A stretch of 63,998 nt of DNA, filler included, from Asterionella formosa (GCA_002256025.1; 17 parts of 17 records of this genome joined end to end with filler, not necessarily neighbours in it), one strand, 5' to 3'. Positions 467-41,637 are shown, numbered from the whole stretch's first letter. Numbers and translations: made by a program. Notes: generated by a model not told the origin, from the sequence alone.

Positions 467-1801
467 ATGGAAGCCGGGGCTCCCCTTACCCCGTCCAGCA
501 GGCAGCAACATGCTTCGAACGAAAGATCACGGAAGGATAAAACTTATTCAGCAACATCATCATCAACAGCAATCGCTTGGATCGACAAGATATACCATCA
601 GTCGTTACTCATTTGGTACAATCACGGACCGGGAAGTCAACTACTGCTGGTGGTATTCGTTGCTGTAATGATTGTTTGGAGCTTTGTCGTTTCCTCGCCA
701 GCCAGGGAATCGCGCACATATGCATTGAATATAGCCACTGGAGCGGAGTATACAGAAGAAGAAACGGAGGCGCGAGGTGCTTACGCTGCTCTGGAACCTG
801 TCTCATGGGCCCACGTCTTCCTCCTCATGTCAGCCGGAACAACACTGGCATGTATTATGTGGTACGGTCGCATACTTTTACCTATTCCAGATTTAGTAGC
901 TGGGAGCAACGTGCTTAAGGCAGTCCGGAATGAAGCCAGGGGTAACATATCTACCAAATCAAAAAACCCAAAACCACAATCTACTCAATATTCGGACATG
1001 GCATGGAATGAACAGTTCAAGTCTATTTCAACTGAAAATCGATTTCGCTTATTTGCCGAAGTGGCACTATTGCGCACAATCGATGCTGGGTTTGTATGTG
1101 GGGTGCTTGCCCGGACTCGCTGGATCTGTCGTGCCACTGGTCATTGTCCCAATTCCCCGACATGGGGAGAGTTGTCAAGGATATTGTACCGACCCCGAGA
1201 CATTACTGACAATAGTCATGTGAGTTTGACCTTTGCATCTGACATTGGGTCCATAGTAGTAATATTCACATCGATTGTGGTAATTACTACTGTATTACTT
1301 CTGGCCCAACTTGCAACATTGGAAAAATCCTATTTAGCAATCATGGGATACATTTCGGGGGAATGGAAATTAGTTTCTGATGCCTCAGCCGGTGGCAGCA
1401 ACAATGTCCCATCTCCTTGGGATTCAAGACGACGGTATAAAAAGGGTGATTATATTGTTTATTCCTACCCTGGATTTCCACCATCCATTTATATGGCAAC
1501 TTCCAATTCTCCAGAAGGTCGGCCATTTGATTTGAGTTTACGAGTGACACATGATTTGTTCCGACAAGATTTAGGACATGTGTCCACGTCCATGGTGATT
1601 TCGTATTGTGCCTCGATTCATAATGCATTCATGGCAGGAATTTTTATGATTGGACTCTACTATACCATCCAAGGAGCCAATACGTCTGCACTGGTGACAG
1701 CATTTATGGCGAATCTAATAGCGTCCTTTGGATTAGTCCATGTGGGACTGATGGATTATAATGAGTTGCAATCTATTGCAGCAGAAGTTAATGGTAATTA
1801 G
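467..1801 (+). CDS. Multi-pass membrane protein; C-terminal part resembles the TMEM39 family
   Basis: Long ORF (open from 83, likely ATG at 467) with several hydrophobic segments. GEWKLV...PWDSRRRYKKGDYIVY...IYMAT...PFD...LF, followed by TM helices, recalls the TMEM39 C-terminal motif. Family call is tentative. Confidence 0.6.
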   Translation: MEAGAPLTPSSRQQHASNERSRKDKTYSATSSSTAIAWIDKIYHQSLLIWYNHGPGSQLLLVVFVAVMIVWSFVVSSPARESRTYALNIATGAEYTEEETEARGAYAALEPVSWAHVFLLMSAGTTLACIMWYGRILLPIPDLVAGSNVLKAVRNEARGNISTKSKNPKPQSTQYSDMAWNEQFKSISTENRFRLFAEVALLRTIDAGFVCGVLARTRWICRATGHCPNSPTWGELSRILYRPRDITDNSHVSLTFASDIGSIVVIFTSIVVITTVLLLAQLATLEKSYLAIMGYISGEWKLVSDASAGGSNNVPSPWDSRRRYKKGDYIVYSYPGFPPSIYMATSNSPEGRPFDLSLRVTHDLFRQDLGHVSTSMVISYCASIHNAFMAGIFMIGLYYTIQGANTSALVTAFMANLIASFGLVHVGLMDYNELQSIAAEVNGN

Positions 1802-2128
1802 GGATTCAATGGAATTTTCCTATTTGCTATTCCATTCCAGCTGTATTTATAGCTCAGCTTCATTGTCCTCACTCATGATCTTGGCCTAGAGATTACAGAG
1901 TGTGGAATGGAATTTCATACGTGTTCAATTGTTTAGTCTTCTACATGTTACACATATTTGGTACAGCACAATAAAACACTCAATATAAAGGAGCAAATAT
2001 GATCTATTTCCATCAGTGCTTTCGAGTTGCGAATCTACACCGGCATATTGTTTCACAAGTTGCATAGAAGAAACAAGAAGTCACTTTCCATTCAATCAAG
2101 CACGATTCAATTGTCACCAAAAATTGGC

Positions 2129-2548
2129 TTACCAACAAATAAATGATCCATGACACTGAACGATCCGACAGAACAAAAGTAAGTCCACTGTTCCCAACGC
2201 GGCAATAACCATGTAAAGCTTCTTCTTCTTGGCCATATGTTTGTTCTTGAGTGCTTCCAATTCTCGTTTGGCCTGTTCTGTGGCGATCCGCATATTCCAT
2301 ACATCATCGGCTGCCCCTCCCAGCTGATGACGTTGTGTGTTCAATTGCGACAGGACCGTCTGCGCTGTTGCTTCCGTTTGATATTGAGTCTTGACAGTAT
2401 CGTGCAAGACGTTCGTTTGTTGTTCCACATAGGTTTGACCAGCGGAAGCAGGCGGCTGATACGCACTGTGCGTATTTTGATAGGAAGTTCCTTGTTGATA
2501 AGAAGACGCATATCTGTTGCTGAGGTTTCCAGAATTGTTGACAGACAT
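2129..2548 (-). CDS. Small tail-anchored SNARE (Qb/Vti1-like)
   Basis: Likely start MSVNNSG at 2548. Heptad SNARE motif TEATAQTVLSQLNTQRHQL...AKRELEAL, then a basic stretch KKKK and a C-terminal TM segment. Confidence 0.75.
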   Translation of the reverse strand: MSVNNSGNLSNRYASSYQQGTSYQNTHSAYQPPASAGQTYVEQQTNVLHDTVKTQYQTEATAQTVLSQLNTQRHQLGGAADDVWNMRIATEQAKRELEALKNKHMAKKKKLYMVIAALGTVDLLLFCRIVQCHGSFICW

Positions 2549-7349: not shown

Positions 7350-7477
7350 GGGGAATAGCTTACTGGTACTAGTTGGTTAGTTCACCTTCCGACGTGGCGG
7401 GTTCGATTCCCGCATTCTCCACCTGCTTTGTTTATGTAGTCCTTTGGGTTCTTCCGGGTGGTGAGGCAGACAACAAG
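7350..7477 (+). mobile_element. tRNA-Ala-derived SINE, 5' part (truncated by contig end)
   Basis: GGGGAAT...GCGGG-TTCGATT-CCCGC-ATTCTCCA gives an acceptor stem with G3:U70 and an intact T arm/B box. The following body is homologous to the copy at 40395-40666. Confidence 0.85.
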
Positions 7478-17420: not shown

Positions 17421-18073
17421 TATTATTTCTCATTTTCGCTGTGTCAAAACAAAAGTTATTTATTGGTTTTATAATATAGAAGCCACAATTCTCCACTACG
17501 AACAATATTCAAGTACATAGTCGTAGTATTTTTTGATGGGCAGTACCAGATAAGCTTATTGCTATCTGTTTAAAAATAATGTATGTATGCGGCTACTTCA
17601 TGGATTAAAAGCTATACACACGAAACTTCAGTCTACCTTTATTTCTATTGGCTAAAAATTTACGCATGAGATTTGACTAATATAGGATTTGGTCGATGCG
17701 GTGAAATTTTATTTTTTTTCGACTTTTGATGAAAAAATTTTCGACCAAGTGACGTGATTCGATATTTTCAACTGCTTTGCAGAGGCACCAAGAATAAACA
17801 GAGCGGACATTCCAATGCATACCGGTAGTCACTGACTAGCCGGCTGGCTACCGATCAAGTACAATATACCGTAGTACTGAAAATAAAATCCTTCCGCTCC
17901 TAAAAAAGATAATATAGAAATCGAGCAACGGTGATGGTCGTTTACACCTGTACAAGTACACACGATAATGCAAATGCTCAACGCATTCGGAATTTTCTTT
18001 AGCGAGATCGAGCGCCACGCACAGGTAAGAATCCGTGTTCACTATGTACCGGGATACAATTTGGACCACTTTA

Positions 18074-18340
18074 GTACGTAAATTCACAAGGAATAACAAT
18101 CTAAATACCTGTATATTACTCACGAGCATATTTCATTCATAGTACCAGTTGCCAGCAGTAGTACCAGGGTGTTCCTGGGTCCAGTACCTGGTACCGGTAC
18201 ACTTTTGTACGTAAATTCACAAGGAATACCAATCTTCATACCTGTATATTACTCACGAGCATATTTCATTCATTGTACCAGTTGCTCCTGGGTCCAGTAC
18301 CTGGTACCAGGGGTACCGGTATCTGGTACCGGAGTACCTG
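18074..18340 (+). repeat. About 133-bp tandem duplication with GGTACC-rich variable tails
   Basis: GTACGTAAATTCACAAGGAATA.CAATCT..ATACCTGTATATTACTCACGAGCATATTTCATTCAT at 18074 and 18207. Confidence 0.9.
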
Positions 18341-29720: not shown

Positions 29721-30501
29721 AGTAAACGCACGGTTTGAACTTAGTTTACAAGATACGCTATTTATTGTCACGAACGAGTTGTTCAGATTTATATAGCGAG
29801 TAAATACTTCCGTACTTGTATTGTTGCATTGTGTACATTGTTAATTAGGTATTATCGCCCAAAGGTTGCTGTCGACGTGAAATTGCGAAAATTGGATATT
29901 TTCACGTTTACTCGATTGAGCAAGCATCACCTTTTATATACGTATTCAGGTATGAGAATATTCCTCCTCTGGAAAACTAATTTAGTATCCTCTAAAATTT
30001 ATTTAATATGACTACGACGGCATTGCGCTTTCGCTCGTGCGCCATAATAAAGAGATAATTTCATTAATGGAAAACGTCAAATAGGAATTCCTGGTGCGCC
30101 CGAATTATGAGTACAAAAATTAAATGCAAACACACANNNNNNNNNNNNNNNNNNNNNNNNNNNNNNNNNNNNNNNNNNNNTTAATTAATTAANNNNNNNN
30201 NNNNNNNNNNNNNNNNNNNNNNNNNNNNNNNNNNNNGTGTCCTTATTGTCGCCCTCCACAATCAAGCTTGTAAACACAAACCGTACTCATGTGGTTACAT
30301 GGTTACCGTATACTTCATTGTCTTGGACCCCCCAATGTACACTGCTGCCGTGACTGAATTTGACTGATTTTACTTAAGGGGGTCCAGGACAATGAAGAGA
30401 TTTCCCTTATACTAGTCCTAAGTTAATTTTATTAGTTCTACAGGATGGCGCGCATTTTTCTAATATTTATTAATATGATCACTGTTTCCGAAAAGTAAAA
30501 A

Positions 30502-31705
30502 ATGAGAAAGTTCTTCACCTTGCAAGAAAAGCGCGACATTGTGGACGATGAAGCATGGGAACTCCCCGGCATCATCAAGGCTGTTGCATGTATGTATGGC
30601 ATCGGCGCCAGCAATATTTGGCACTAGAAAGCTAACTTTCATGATTTCGACAATCGTTATTCTGATGTAGAAGGTTTATTGTCGGATTACTAGGGGCGTC
30701 TCCTACTGAAAAAAGAAACTTTTCATTTAGGCAAGTTGTGTAGCAATAGTGCAACTGAATTTGCGGCGATTCGTCTCTTGTATGATCAGCTTCGTGGTGA
30801 TGATCGCGCTTGTTCGATCATGTTGCTTGCTGCTGAGCTGAAGCGCTTGTTGGGACATGTTGTTAGCTTGAGTGTTATTCAACAGCGTGTAGCTTGCTTG
30901 TTGGTGCACATCCCAAAACATCGTGTATCGTTGTATCACCCACAAGGCACAAAACACGCGCTATGTCCTGAGCGTCATGCAGGAGTATTTCCAGTACATA
31001 AACGCACAGTTTCTTGAAGGGTCATATCAACGCGCTAGTATCGTAAAAATAGATGAGACAAACGTTTATTTCGATATGGCACCAGGCGGGCTCACGATGG
31101 CTGATAAAGGTGTGAAAACCATCAGTTTACGCACCAATGGCAGCAGCATGCGTTGCACAGTGTTGTTGGGTGTTACCATGTCAGGAGGAGAGAAGCTTGC
31201 TCCTCTTGTTGTTTTCAAAGGAGCACCTGATGCCAGGATCCAGTAAGAATTTAACAATCAACAGTTTGCTTATCCCCCACAGATGGTTTATTGTTGTCAG
31301 GCAAAGGCGTGGGTCGATGAGTCGGTGTTTGCGCTTTGGATTCGGGGAGTCTGGAAACCATGGAAAATCAGCCATGATTCTCAACCAAGCTATCTCCTGA
31401 TGGATGAGTCCCAGGTGCATTTGATGGCGACGAGTCTCAATGCAATTAAGGATTGTGTCACTGCTGTGGACTTCATTTGTGGTTGCTGCACATCAAAACT
31501 TCAAGTTTTGGACGTTGGAGTAAACAAGCCCTTTAAGGGTTTTGTTAGGAATGCCTATGAGGACTGGATGGTCACCCATCCTCATGGTACAAAGGTGAAG
31601 CGACATGATGTCGCTCCTCAGTGGGTTTGGACAGCTTGGCTGAGGGTGTCACAATCAACAATTTTGAACACTTGCAATGCGGTTGGTTACATTACAAGGG
31701 ATTGA
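30502..31705 (+). pseudogene. pogo-type DD35D transposase (HTH plus DDE_1), decayed
   Basis: N-terminal HTH (FTLQEKRDIV...YGIGASNI). Catalytic motifs IDETNVYFDM, LLMDESQVH and LQVLDVGVNKPFK, with 35 residues between the last two Asp. Stops and frameshifts present. Confidence 0.93.
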
Positions 31706-32007
31706 TGACTCTATTTTATTCATAAAGTGTAGCATGTGACTTGAAATATAACTTTATAGTCTGTTTAAGCATGCTCTATTGTTATATTATTGATTTGTGG
31801 AAGCAATTCCATAGCGTTAATGTTAGACAGCTTCAGTCGTAATTTACGATTCGATTTTTCGTGTTGAAGCTAGTAGAACTGCAGTTGACGTGAATCACTA
31901 TAAATGCTAAAGGAAATGACTCAAGAGTCTATTACTGTTCTACAATATTATAATAAATAGTATAGAATGCATTTCGATTTCGTTATTGAGGACTGCTACA
32001 ATCAAAT

Positions 32008-32425
32008 CTACTCCCGGCCTTGAATATCCTTCATCAAGCGGAATGAAGCCATTCCGGCATTCCTCTTCCTCTTCTTTCTCCTCATCATAGAATTTTCATT
32101 GTCATCATACAGTTCTAGCACCTGCGCAAACTTGTTGATGTACTTGCTCTGTTGTGAAGGCAATGCTGCAACTTCTCTGCCCAGAAACCCAACAGTGCAA
32201 AGTTCCGTGCCGTCCTTGATGAGGACCACACTTGATCATCTCCAATGGCTTGCCCAATACACCCTCCACAACAGCCAGCTTGAACCTGATCACATCATCA
32301 GCCTTAACCGCTTTCCCGGCGCAGCATTCATGTTGCTCACATGAGCGCCCATTGCTGGAAGCATTCAGTCCAAGCAACTCCCCATCTCGGCGGCTGTTGA
32401 TTGTTGCTGATCTTGTTGTTGACAT
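32008..32425 (-). pseudogene. Passenger ORF in the pogo element: predicted HIRAN-like domain with CxxHxCC insert (one frameshift near 32230)
   Basis: Joined frames read DGELLGLNASSNGRSCEQHECCAGKAVKADDVIRF...EMIK/VVLIKDGTELCTVGFLGRE...KFAQVLELYD...RNAGMASFRL. A homologue lies at 40013-40785. The fold call is inference. Confidence 0.7.
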
Positions 32426-33645
32426 GATAAATATGTAGTAGTATGCATTGGTAGTACCGATATTACCGGTAGTTTATAATGGTAGTAGTGTCATTCAATT
32501 TCCGCCACAAAAATCAGAATTATATCATGTTACTTTGTCTATGTCTAGAAAATTATTGGGTGTTTGGTGCAACCTCGAAAAAAATGTACAGGGGGGTCCA
32601 GCAACCTCAGGGGGTCCAGGACAATGAAGTATATGGTAGATTGCTGACCTGTATATATGATGTACTAGTACGCACAGGCAAATATTCACAATGTTCAGAC
32701 TTTCCCGGAACTCCCTGTAGCTACCAGTACGTGGTTTGTAAGGCTGAAGTAGCCAGTTATGTGGTACTCCCTCTGCTGGTCTCTGGTTGAAAATAGTTTT
32801 TGGCGATTCTTAAATCTTCTCTGGGGTCCCCATTTTGACTCCAACAATTTTATCTTGAAAGGTCCATTTACACACACCTTTCAGTTTCGACTATCTCCCT
32901 ATGTATGCTTTGCGCCATGCCTGCCAGAATAGATAGGCTGGCTTTGTTCAATTCCAAACTCGTCTCTTCAGTAACTTTCTATGCCATTAAATTATCATTC
33001 ACAAAATCGATTTCAAGATTTTGTTCTGCAATATCCAAAATGTGTTCACATACTCTTATTCAGCAACTGGAAAATGGTTTGGTTATCCAGTTTGCCAATC
33101 AGTACCTTGTATATAACGTTGTCAACTACTGCTTTCTACATAGTCATTTGTCAGCAAATTTCTAGTTGTATGAATTCACCAAATAGATCAGTAATGGTAA
33201 ACAATTGAGCCATTTTGAAAATGTCAATGGTCCACTAATTGACATAGCCTATTGTTTAACAGCAAAGCAAAGAAAATCTTGTTCGACCCACTGGTACTAG
33301 CTATCATGGGTGGACTGACGGCATTCTTGTAATAAAAGTCATGCAGACAATAAATGAACCTTCTGCTCTAGACAAATGCATGAGGTACTATGAGTGGGAT
33401 ACATATTTTATGTACCCAAGCCATTCACAGGCGAGAAGGGGCTTGAGTGGGGAATATCATCTGACATCAGACTTGCTGATGATGGCATGACTCTACTCTT
33501 CTTTGAGTAATATTACTCATCCACAAAGTTTTCGAGTTTTCTGGTTCTCTGAGTCAGGGAGTAAAGATTGCAAACCAAATGCTAGGGCCAGAGTGGGATA
33601 CAACTATGAACCTACTGGTACCTGGTACCTGGTACCCGGGCAGTA

Positions 33646-33721
33646 CCCGAGCAAGTGCCGGTCATTTTGCTTTTATAAACAATCTAATATGGGATAAAGA
33701 TAGCTAACTGTTTAGCTTCAG
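33646..33721 (-). mobile_element. MITE family A partial copy
   Basis: TA-CCCGAGCAAGTGCCGGTCATTTTGCT...ATGGGATAAAGATAGCTAA. Confidence 0.75.
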
Positions 33722-34157
33722 GTTCCTGCATTTGAACCCCTATGCAAAAATTAAAATATTGCTTAGGGTTGCCGAAATTCCCTGGAACTAAGAACTTTTA
33801 TGCGCTAATTTTGAATATCGATGATTCCGTTTGAAATATTTAAATCAGTGGAAATTTGCGCGTGCGTATATAGATTCCTTCTCATATACCCTGAAATACA
33901 CATACTANNNNNNNNNNNNNNNNNNNNNNNNNNNNNNNNNNNNNNNNNNNNTTAATTAATTAANNNNNNNNNNNNNNNNNNNNNNNNNNNNNNNNNNNNN
34001 NNNNNNNTTGAATAAGGTGCACGAATCCAGAAGAAATTACAGTCTACCAATTTAATGTGAGGATTGACGTTATAACGTTCATACATATAGCTAGCTAATA
34101 TATATATTAAAAGAAATAACTAGTACTGCTGTGTTGTGTGCATGCATATCTCGAATC

Positions 34158-37773: not shown

Positions 37774-39450
37774 TTCTTAGATGAAATGTGCCCTGACATT
37801 AATATGCTTTGTCTGTGCACCCACATGTTGGTTCTTTCCCAAATAGATAGCTCCTAAATTGTCTTCGTATACAAGCCCAACCAATTTCTCCTCTTTTGGA
37901 TAATTCATCACTTCTTCTACTAGTAGCATGGATATGAGCTTGTTCTCACATGCTCCTTTTGCCAAACTGTTATACTCGACTTCTGGTCTGTGCTTGACAA
38001 TGTAAATACATGTTGTGTCATCGACTCCACGTTCACCAATGTACCACCGATTGTTTGTAGATCAGATGAATGCTCTTCCTGTCATCAATATTCTTTGCAT
38101 AGCTAGTCTGAGTCCACAAATGATACAGGCCTCAGCTCCTTTGGGTTCCGATAAGTCAACCCATCATAGTATCTTGCTTTAATGTGGTGTCCAATCAGCC
38201 TTTCAAGGGCTCTCCAGTGCTCCTTGCCTATGTTTGACAGATGTTGCGCCAACTCTCGTGCGGGGTCTGCCAGATCTGGTGCCAAATTTGTCATCAAATA
38301 CATTACTTTCCCAACTATAGAACTATATTCCGTCATTTTTCTAGCTTCTCCTTGATTTTTACTGAGAAACTTGTTTTGATATCCTGGTGTCTCTGACTCC
38401 TTAACATTCTTCCCAATTATAGTTTCGAATGATTCAACAATTTTATCCTCCAACTTTGTCATTACACTAACCACAATGTAGGTGGCTTCACCGTTTTCAT
38501 TAGTATTCCATTCATACGATATGCCAAGATGCTCTTCAATCTTCCCAAATCCAAAATATTGAACCTCTTCTGCAATTCCAACTTGAAAAATCTTTGTCTT
38601 CTTTCCAATCAATCAATGGTCATAAACATGTATTACTTCTTCATCCACTTTACTCTTCCAGTAATATAAACATGGATCCACCAAGCCCTGAGTCATCTTC
38701 ATTTCCTTCATCAAGTTTTTGCACAGTGTCTTTTCATAAAAAGTTTTGGGACATCGACTCCACCATACATGGCTCTTGTCAGCTTGATGGCTGGTTAAGG
38801 TTTAGGGCTCTTGTTGGTCCCTCCAAAACCAAAATCTGCCTGCTGCCAAGTCCGCCCTTTCCCTCCTGAGAAAACGCATTTCTCCCAGCCACTAAACATA
38901 CTGCTCACAGGGCATTCTTCAAATGAAGGCGTGTTCCTCCGCCTTCCACAACCTTTCCCTACCTTTCTACCACTTCTAAGCCCAGAACCTTCAGAACTTA
39001 AAAAACCAAGAAATTGTTCCCTTTTGCTGCCATCCACTCATCTTACCATCAGGCGCCAACGATAGGAACATCACTTTCGTCTGCTCCTTGTTCTACTGCA
39101 TTAGGATCTCAAGTATTTCCTTTCTCAACAACTCGGAATCTAGTACCAGCCAGCAGATTCTTCATTTCGTAACCAACATGAATTGACTATTCATTTATTT
39201 TCTAAGCCTGTCTCCACTTTCAATGACAAGCCTCATCCTTTCCAGCAATTTTTTGCTTTCACCCTGTGTTTCTTCTATCTGTTTGATTATCAGAAAAATC
39301 GATAATCTGCCTGCCTTGCACCAGCTTCCCATTCTTCTTCAGCTATCAATTCATTAGTATGCATCTGAACATTAATATTTTCTTGATATCCTCATTTTTA
39401 GCATCCAAGATATTCTTGTCACATTTTCTTCTGAGACAGTAGTATGCATC
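37774..39450 (-). mobile_element. Heavily decayed Copia (gag remnant, RT, RNase H)
   Basis: IKLTRAMYGGVD, DPCLYY, SIVGKVMYL...PDL...RELAQH, FVDSD and YEDNLGAIYL..NQHVG.QTKHINVRAHFI. Confidence 0.9.
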
Positions 39451-40012
39451 AAATATCTAAGATGTTGACTTCCTGATCGAGGCAGTTACAGATGTGTATT
39501 TTTTTGTTCCAAGGAAATTTAATTCGGAGCTTCTAACATTACAGAGTTGTTTGGAAGAAATATTACAATGCCATGGTGGCAACAATTATAAGATTCCACA
39601 TATGGGGAAAGAAACATTGTAGAGAGAGAGAGGGGTTGTTACCTATTCAATTAGGGACACCATCGGAACAGGCAATCGAATTTGCACATGCATTCATGGA
39701 GGATTTCATTGATGACAATAGTGTGATTTTAGAGATTCACAATGAGGAATAGTTAATTGTTTTTTGTTTTCATTCTAGGAGGATGCATGCATGGAGGTGG
39801 GATTTTGGCAGCTGACGCCCTAATGGCTGCATAGTAGAAACAATGTACCTTCCCCACCATGAAAGAATAAATGGTTTTTCTTATTCATACACATTAAGAA
39901 GCTTATACCTAGCATTCATTTACTTTTATATTATGAACAATGAAGAATGAAAACTTCAAGTCGAAAGCAAAGTATAAGTCTGTAGCATTTAGAATACTTT
40001 ACTATTCTATTT

Positions 40013-40785
40013 CTATGACCTCCTCCTCTTCGTTGCATTCCTCTTACGCTTTCTAGATGGTTTTATACTCTCAACATCAATAAACTCCTGGTGTTTAATG
40101 ATTTCGTCGGAGAAAGAAAAATTTGCTACTCCAAATCCACGTTTGCTCTTGGCTGTGTCTCACAGAGACAGCCAGCCATCCAAGGAATTTTCCAACAACT
40201 CTTGCACCTCGTCGTCAGCATACCTCCCAATGTAAAGAAGGGGAGCCTTGTTTTTGATCAAATTTCTGCCAAGTTACCCAACCCAATACCAAGCCTTGAC
40301 ATCCTCTGCTGTGCCTTCTCTAATATCTATTAACAAAATAACTGCAGTAGCAGCCTCTGGTTCATCTGTCAATTCAATAACAATGCTGACTTCAGGGCAA
40401 TGGCTTAATTGAGTAGCAGCCACAGCACCTCGCTCATGAGGTCGTGGTGGGTTCAATTCCTGCATTCTCCACCTGTCTTTCTTTTATGTAGTCCCTATCT
40501 GTGGTTCTATGGGGTGAGGCTGATGAAGAGACAAGTCCCATTGTACCATATGGACAAGTAAAAATGGCACTTCTTGACTTGTGTTCATTCAAGTGGGCAT
40601 GAGTGCGATTATTGGATAGCTTTAACATATTATTAAGAATTTAATTAGCCAACATTATTATTATTCACAACGCTGACTTCAAGAAAACTCATTATGCTAC
40701 CTGGCACTACATTCCGGCTGCAGACATGGTGAATGTCACTGTTGTTGGCCTTGAGGCCGCCCCAGACTTGCCCATCCATTTTCAT
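40013..40785 (-). pseudogene. Second HIRAN-like passenger ORF, split by the SINE
   Basis: Removing the SINE and one TSD joins MDGQVWGGLKANNSDIHHVCSRNVVPGSIMSFLEVS to IVIELTDEPEAATAVILLIDIREGT...WVG*LGRN. After a frameshift it continues VQELLENS...KRGFGVANFSF...RKRKR. Collinear with 32008-32425. Confidence 0.7.
40395..40666 (+). mobile_element. Full-length 272-bp tRNA-Ala-derived SINE
   Basis: Head GGGCAATGGCTTAATTG...GTGGGTTCAATTCCTGCATTCTCCA (A and B boxes); tail ATTATTATTATTC; 15-bp TSD ACAATGCTGACTTCA (40380-40394) and ACAACGCTGACTTCA (40667-40681). Confidence 0.9.
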
Positions 40786-41637
40786 GTTGCCAAATTTTCG
40801 TTTCTTTGCAAGGCAGTTTTTCTCCTGTTTGGTTGTAGTCAGCCAATCTTGATTATCATGTACCACTCCATTAGTATAAAGCAAAACAACTATTCTGGCT
40901 AGAGAAGGGAGATACAAGTAAATTCAATAGCCCTAAATGATGCACATGTATCGCTATTTAGCGTTATTCTCTCGCCTAAATACCGGCATACTAAAAACCC
41001 AACCGACGTACCCATAGTATTCATCATATCGCGTACAGTAGAATAATTATATTGCCTCTTACACAGAGGACTTCTTTTAAGGACGTGGATCGAGCCGGGG
41101 TACCTGGTAGTCGCTGAGTGTGTTGCATCTATCCCGGAACATAGGGAGTACCGGTATAGCTCCCTCATTTTACTGGAGTACCGGTATGTGGAATGGTGTA
41201 TACTACTACAATGCACAACTTTTCCGAAGGATTGTATTTGCTGTACTACGGTACCGGTACATTCGCACGGTTGCAAAAAGAAACAGGAGTTTACGTTGGT
41301 TATCATCAGCAATACTTGCTTGTTCTTCCCATTGCTACGGCCAACAACTTGACCGAGGGATTAACTTAATAATACCGGTAGCCTAGCATATACAGTGTTA
41401 TATTTAGAAAATACTATATTCCAACCATGCGCTTGTCCANNNNNNNNNNNNNNNNNNNNNNNNNNNNNNNNNNNNNNNNNNNNTTAATTAATTAANNNNN
41501 NNNNNNNNNNNNNNNNNNNNNNNNNNNNNNNNNNNNNNNATGCATTACCAGTGAGTTAACTCTTATATTGACTGGTACAGGATATGTAAACTAAAAATTA
41601 TAGTACATATCAAGGCAAGGACCAAGCGTAATAGATA

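Follow-up and report, generated by a model that had tools for sequence, protein, structure and literature searches.

The window analyzed here, a 64-kb stretch of DNA (63,998 nt) from Asterionella formosa, is made up of 17 unlinked contigs of about 3.7 kb each, joined by N44-TTAATTAATTAA-N44 spacers. Contig 37774-41439 carries the C-terminal stump of a mariner transposase and, converging on it, a decayed open reading frame (ORF), the passenger pseudogene; a separate contig, 30237-33907, carries a pogo transposon whose second gene is a passenger ORF of the same family (Table 1).

Table 1. Features of the mariner-bearing contig and of the pogo element in the window (SINE, short interspersed nuclear element; NLS, nuclear localization signal; strand "." where none applies).
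Feature	Coordinates	Strand	Remarks
C-terminal stump of a PlantMar-type (DD39D-like) mariner transposase	39461..39752	+	~97 aa; stop 39750-39752
Spacer between convergent stop codons	39753..40012	.	260 bp
Passenger pseudogene	40013..40785	-	ATG 40785-40783; stop 40015-40013; split by insert; basic NLS-like tail
SINE-like high-copy insert	40395..40681	+	span takes in second copy of 15-nt target duplication
Repeated segment R2	40920..41095	.	between passenger start and terminus; ~100-nt variable middle
PlantMar/Stowaway-like terminus CTCCCTATGTTCCGGG	41133..41150	-	CTCCCTATGTTCCGGG at 41148..41133; TA at 41149-41150
High-copy repeat	37774..38880	-	abuts mariner stump; very high depth
pogo transposon, TA flanks	30313..32629	+	decayed DDE_1 transposase and passenger; contig 30237-33907
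Decayed DDE_1 transposase	about 30460-31705	+	Pfam E 1e-14
pogo passenger ORF	32425..32011	-	frameshifted once, near 32235; E 2.4e-28 and 7.8e-22 against the family profile

Judging from its relatives, the stump belongs to the PlantMar type and not to pogo. At 39461-39622 it shares 54-57% identity over 53-57 aa with the C-termini of transposases of 245-520 aa (E 2e-7 to 4e-5 in a search against 5.8e9 proteins), among them P0164 from Chenopodium quinoa, P0184, and P0174, whose N-terminus is DUF7769; two proteins of Aphanomyces astaci, of which one is said by a source to have a Tc1-like transposase domain, match less strongly. There is one frameshift near 39615-39625, past which the frame runs on as ...EREGLLPIQL... 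(compare ...RLGTLPVHI... in P0174) to the stop at 39752. The ...QQDGA...SPDTN.LDL... motifs of the relatives are presumably the plant-type DD39D pattern, and the tails of pogo transposases (...ITNTW.SIG...) are unlike the stump. No further part of a PlantMar transposase was found in the window, and nothing upstream of 39461, by tblastn with four full-length relatives; the catalytic DDD core is absent from the contig, where the stump adjoins another repeat. According to PMC7325037, PlantMar elements are recorded from plants and stramenopiles only, a range that agrees with the stramenopile source guessed in the initial annotation.

The translation of the passenger pseudogene opens with MKMDGQVWGGLKANNSDIHHVCSRNVVPGSIMSFLEVS from 40785 and is then broken by the insert; after the insert it reads IVIELTDEPEAATAVILLIDIREGTAEDVKAWYWVG, stop, LGRNLIKNKAPLLYIGRYADDEVQELLENSLDGWLSL, stop, DTAKSKRGFGVANFSFSDEIIKHQEFIDVESIKPSRKRKRNATKRRRS and the final stop, down to 40013, its C-terminus being the basic, NLS-like tail ...SRKRKRNATKRRRS. 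The two stops within the frame are TAA at 40274-40276 and TGA at 40160-40162. Copies of a 15-nt direct repeat stand at 40380-40394 and 40667-40681, one at either side of the insert (14 of 15 nucleotides identical, spacing 287), and taking out the 287 nt brings both halves of the ORF into one frame. In contigs of four public runs, from which all read depths were taken (depth is not equal to copy number), the insert is 20-100 times deeper than its flanks and has many loose ends; a 52-nt core of it is found again at 7393-7442. As no tRNA was detected in the insert by ARAGORN or Rfam, "SINE-like" is the safe term for it, and the box-like motifs that may be present are a reading by eye. The window copy also lacks the G-R-S-C stretch of the family (a 3-residue deletion) and any equivalent of the conserved C75 (numbering of P0002, an intact relative), so that two of the four conserved Cys/His positions are gone. 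Given the two stops, the insert and the lost conserved positions, this copy is a pseudogene.

By sequence comparison, the ORF at 40785..40013 and the pogo passenger are homologous. The read-through translation, with X at the breaks, aligns to P0002 with a Smith-Waterman score of 68 (mean of shuffles 27.7, standard deviation 4.8; none of 1000 reach 68) and to a second intact relative, P0003, with a score of 62 (0 of 1000 shuffles as high); the pairings with P0014 (score 42, 1 of 1000) and with the truncated P0019 (score 33, 83 of 1000) are weaker. With a hidden Markov model (HMM) of 119 family sequences the same translation aligns over nearly the full profile length (positions 22-143) at 27.4 bits; the highest of 2000 shuffles reaches 5.0. 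The unjoined pieces are weak singly (E 0.026 and 0.092), yet rank third and fourth among all six-frame pieces of the window and are collinear with the profile. A weak profile match at 18029-18139 (E 0.44) and a 28-nt match at 17867-17894 led nowhere.

The one close relative of the window copy that was found is P0191 (113 aa, 73% identity), encoded on a 528-bp contig. It is less decayed and retains the C75 region; its C-terminal tail is the same distinctive one, and the family profile matches it at 34.6 bits. Viral contigs scanned with P0191, and likewise with the PlantMar transposase P0174, gave no match. Since the window copy scores no higher (68) against the passenger that pogo carries in this genome than against distant members (up to 94, P0055), it seems to be an old branch with a C-terminal tail of its own and not a recent duplicate of that passenger.

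What the initial annotation had described on this contig was recovered: the plant-type mariner C-terminus is real, the ORF is split by an insert whose excision restores a single frame, and both the basic tail and a Stowaway-like end after the ORF are present. The six pairs of motifs that it had matched with the pogo passenger all lie on the minus strand where it placed them, and the shuffling test it had called for puts the similarity beyond chance (0 of 1000 against P0002, 0 of 2000 against the HMM).

The passenger family, of proteins of ~125-140 aa, is large. With the first 64 residues of the pogo passenger as query, 20 of 30 candidate proteins matched at E<=0.01. Among these, P0002 and P0003 (136 aa, 94-95% identical) represent clusters of 31 and 30 sequences, and a phmmer search of 1.84 billion cluster representatives with P0002 as query returned 717 proteins at E<=1e-3, 253 at E<=1e-10 and 17 at E<=1e-30. 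Members are mostly 120-175 aa long; some have long, low-complexity N-terminal extensions, none of which matched Pfam at E<=0.01 (0 of 29). No Pfam model fits the family, the sole recurring match being a sub-threshold one to DUF6578 in 5 of 87 members. Residues G19, G26, R27, C29, H32, C35, G36, C75, F79 and Y105 are near-invariant in the 87-row alignment, and the C/H/C/C set among them is a possible metal site.

The usual carrier of the family is pogo. In the window, 29-nt inverted repeats with TA flanks (30304-30332 and 32610-32638, 93% complementary) enclose both transposase and passenger, as do 29-nt terminal inverted repeats (TIRs; 78-106 and 2491-2519) at the metagenomic locus L005. A metagenome scan with a 9-row alignment of close members and the pattern DG[TM]E[LST]C[TMV]xGF matched 31 stretches and gave 24 loci, a sample biased by that alignment toward the pogo subfamily. 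In 17 of the 24, tblastn with two full transposases places a pogo transposase immediately downstream, on the strand opposite to the passenger, and Pfam finds DDE_1 in ORFs of 10 loci (44 ORFs scanned); L003, L010, L011, L013, L019 and L020 have no pogo match and are uninformative, as they stop 21-184 bp past the passenger. Over 14 elements, the pairwise identities of the passengers track those of the transposases (Mantel r 0.66, reached by none of 5000 permutations), with several close pairs contributing. The ratio dN/dS is 0.036 for L007 and L008 (dN 0.084, dS 2.36, saturated), 0.15 for L001 and L005 (dS saturated) and 0.59 for the decayed pair L021/L022, near-identical pairs being uninformative. 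The association with pogo, the enclosure by TIRs, the co-divergence and the dN/dS values together show that the passenger is a conserved second gene of a pogo lineage, under purifying selection and co-diverging with the transposase.

Some pogo-related loci are organized differently. At L023 the transposase lies upstream of the passenger instead of converging on it from the downstream side (2-557 on the minus and 1299-1601 on the plus strand); the passenger there is among the most divergent (37% identity). At L016, L017 and L018 (probably also L019), from different metagenomes, the passenger is followed directly by only the N-terminal ~85 residues of a pogo transposase, which looks like a propagated internal-deletion derivative retaining the passenger; an antisense ORF of 231-232 aa overlaps the passenger there. 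Upstream of passenger copies there are an FHA-domain ORF (L010, 1824-2768, plus strand) and RVT_1 ORFs (L013 and L014, about 1010-2189, plus strand), probably host genes or neighbours from other elements. The pogo element of the window has a second, inverted copy of its left end 31 nt on (30313-30339 and 30371-30397, 85% complementary); this doubled end (30313-30397) looks like a tiny end-to-end hairpin resembling a miniature inverted-repeat transposable element (MITE), or a duplicated terminus.

At the mariner stump the passenger has the same orientation relative to the transposase as in the pogo elements, and the distance between the stop codons (260 bp) falls within their range of 204-309 bp. 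The spacer contains neither a PlantMar-like end pattern nor a pogo end, and neither a pogo transposase nor a pogo end was found anywhere on the contig by tblastn and blastn. Beyond the ORF, 348 bp past the passenger ATG, there is an exact match to a PlantMar/Stowaway-like end, CTCCCTATGTTCC with TA, oriented as a right end (...GGAACATAGGGAG and then TA, at 41136-41150); the TIRs of bamboo Ppmar2 start with TA-CTCCCTCCGTCCC (PMC6696609, its Table 1). The exact match to CTCCCTNNGTTCC occurs at a single site in the 64 kb (41148..41136), and 0.47 matches to the end pattern with at most one mismatch occur in shuffles of the whole window. With a terminus beyond the ORF and none between the genes, the layout at the mariner stump mirrors that of pogo.

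Layout and terminus suggest, short of proof and from a single dead copy, that the passenger resided in the mariner, and we consider it the likeliest reading, slightly more probable than not, that it once lay within a 5'-truncated PlantMar-type element, between the transposase stop and the terminus. Several facts weigh against this. There is one copy only, whose mariner breaks off at 39461 next to a high-copy repeat of unrelated sequence, and its subfamily is known from one other relative, P0191 on its 528-bp contig. The terminus has no left TIR partner on the contig or in the window, and the end pattern was relaxed (NN) after the site had been seen. Moreover, R2 sits between the ORF and the terminus, which could therefore belong to another Stowaway-like fragment. 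Finally, mariner was found in none of the 24 related loci, a biased sample obtained with a scan pattern that does not fit this subfamily.

R2 itself (40920-41095) stands out by its raised depth; loose ends occur at 40920, and there are joints that skip about 40966-41067. Other copies of it have a different yet conserved sequence ahead of 40920. A MITE akin to the mariner subterminal region is one possible reading of R2.

The two genes could also have come together by chance among transposon remains, the ORF being a decayed pogo-type remnant or a solo copy that the mariner never carried; we hold this possible, though distinctly less probable than residence in the mariner. Repeats of at least three families lie mosaic-like along the contig (the high-copy one that abuts the stump, the SINE-like insert and the one at 40920-41095), and many rearranged variants occur among the aligned contigs of the four public runs. 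All informative related loci pair the passenger family with pogo and none with mariner, and truncation hides how far the mariner once extended. However, a pogo remnant would have left no pogo transposase or end on the contig, a mariner tail would by chance have taken up the usual spacing and orientation of the pogo transposase, and the only PlantMar-like end in 64 kb would have come to lie beyond the ORF, with none between the genes.

An improbable alternative is a former host (domesticated) copy, now a pseudogene, around which transposons inserted and which was part of no element. Many family members with long low-complexity N-terminal extensions have no transposase domains, so that some may be host genes, and the window subfamily has its own C-terminal tail; but the region from the transposase tail to the ORF is a few-fold deeper than neighbouring single contigs in the likely source run (a weak measure), a second decayed copy exists in P0191, and the placement mirrors a transposon layout. 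Fusion of unrelated repeats in assembly is more improbable still: the contigs are short (~3.7 kb) and this one holds at least three repeat families, but independent metagenome contigs cover 39442-39755, 39640-39797, 39804-40006 and 39829-40160 with 0-3 differences, although none of these pieces bridges 39797-39829.

The initial annotation went further and proposed a selected, exchangeable module shared by distant transposases. We find this plausible, the evidence being evenly balanced: the homology of the ORF, the layout and the selection acting on the family speak for it, while no intact mariner with the gene was found. Tabulation of the neighbouring transposases, which it had recommended, gave a convergent pogo at 17 of the 24 metagenomic loci and mariner at none, in the biased sample described above. 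Frequent swapping is not supported, as the co-divergence of passenger and transposase within pogo argues for stable linkage instead. The underlying claim of a real, selected and apparently undescribed accessory gene is borne out by family size, dN/dS and the lack of a Pfam model.

As to function, AlphaFold2 on the 87-row alignment gives a mostly beta model (pLDDT 91.4, pTM 0.83). Among 48,161 chains compared by VIA-align, only 3k2y (Z 6.9), the HLTF HIRAN domain 4xzg (6.4) and Rad5 6l8o (5.3) reach Z>=5; a second structural comparison lists 3k2y (7.3), 4xzf of HLTF (6.8), 4xzg (6.6) and 4s0n (6.5), the next row being at 4.4, and in these top four, all of them HIRAN entries, 81-91 of ~125 residues are aligned with a root-mean-square deviation of 2.5-3.6 A. 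We take 3k2y to be a HIRAN protein. A HIRAN cluster is also listed by a language-model search (0.81; lead only).

The link to HIRAN is nevertheless modest, all Z values being below 8, and other searches count against it. Foldseek has no match at E<=1e-3, its highest-probability row being the HLTF HIRAN domain (E 0.32, probability 0.77); the Pfam HIRAN model (PF08797) matches 0 of 87 members at E<=0.1; and hhalign against 29 bacterial HIRAN segments, drawn from 49 positive genomes among 401 searched, gives a probability of 2.5% (E 0.019), with 43 columns of the alignment falling on the expected HIRAN core. When PDB sequences were searched with the family profile, a single, irrelevant match came back (E 1). 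As the resemblance comes from structural matches without confirmation at the level of sequence, the modelled fold is better called HIRAN-like than assigned to the HIRAN family.

In the mechanism proposed here, the passenger protein would be a beta-barrel of HIRAN-like form, probably with a metal site made up of Cys and His residues; it would enter the nucleus through its basic tail and bind DNA ends, for instance the free 3'-OH ends produced by Tc1/mariner-type cut-and-paste. Such binding, at the transposon ends or at the donor gap, could shield the ends or steer them to repair or integration. The same role would serve pogo and mariner alike, because they share the chemistry and the TA target. 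A prediction of the complex of the L001 pogo transposase with the passenger (scores 0.00, 0.32 and 0.00) informs neither way. That this HIRAN-like metal-binding protein is a portable Tc1/mariner helper, kept by a whole pogo lineage and independently acquired by a PlantMar mariner, is put forward tentatively and as a rather doubtful proposal.

Other observations concern the remainder of the window. The repeat at 37774-38880 contains what we take to be Ty1/copia-like reverse transcriptase/RNase H motifs, a reading that Pfam, with no match, did not confirm. Motifs like GGTACCGGTA recur at 32447-32490, 41145-41262 and 33615-33650, close to each of the two passenger genes and also in other parts of the window; they could represent a promoter element or a motif spread through the genome. 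The aligned contigs of the four public runs did not fix the ends of the mariner-side element; the single short joints 39618->40877 and 40244->40923, with sides of only 25-38 letters, were not relied on, and a 13-nt inverted pair at 38801 and 40925 was set aside as near chance expectation by estimate. Fragments of a PIF/Harbinger-type transposase are present on a different contig (16139-16921, minus strand; Pfam Plant_tran, E 6e-34 and 7e-19).

Tc1/mariner and pogo elements are textbook one-gene transposons, and the superfamily is thought to need its transposase alone. The solid result of this analysis is the pogo-borne accessory gene family, the recurrence in mariner being a single dead copy. 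A conserved, selected second gene with a confident HIRAN-like model, hundreds of clusters and no database family would be a new component of transposon biology. Were it to hold for mariner too, its function would be tied to the shared cut-and-paste chemistry rather than to one transposase, and the passenger would be the first conserved accessory factor of the Tc1/mariner superfamily, acting on 3'-OH ends or the donor gap, and a candidate for a DNA-end-binding protein that might be useful for transposon tools. The present value of the mariner case is that of a pointer for better assemblies.

The passenger can be compared with several described systems. Its likeness to HIRAN (HLTF, Rad5; PF08797) is structural (81-91 of ~125 residues, Z 6.5-7.3), while no invariant column in the alignment of bacterial HIRAN segments corresponds to its conserved Cys/His positions; no HIRAN-like transposon protein was found in the literature searched, which leaves Repbase and most subscription journals outside its coverage. 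A precedent for one accessory protein family in diverse eukaryotic transposons is provided by the Fanzor/TnpB-like proteins (PMC3627910), though Fanzor is a large RNA-guided nuclease unrelated to the passenger. The ciliate TBE/Tec elements, according to PMC7325037, belong to the Tc1/mariner superfamily and have extra ORFs, one of them on the complementary strand; unlike the passenger system, they are ciliate-specific and have recombinase and zinc-finger genes and very long TIRs. PlantMar elements and Stowaway MITEs, for which the literature searched gave no accessory gene, are matched by the C-terminal transposase and by the terminus TA-CTCCCT..GT.CC, as in Ppmar2 (PMC6696609), but all that is seen here is a single end and the final ~97 aa. 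The usual carriers of the passenger are pogo/DDE_1 elements of the Tc1/mariner superfamily, which have a DDE_1 transposase with a CENP-B-like helix-turn-helix, TIRs and TA flanks. Described pogo elements are single-gene, as far as was found within the same coverage, while those that bear the passenger have a conserved, convergent second gene.

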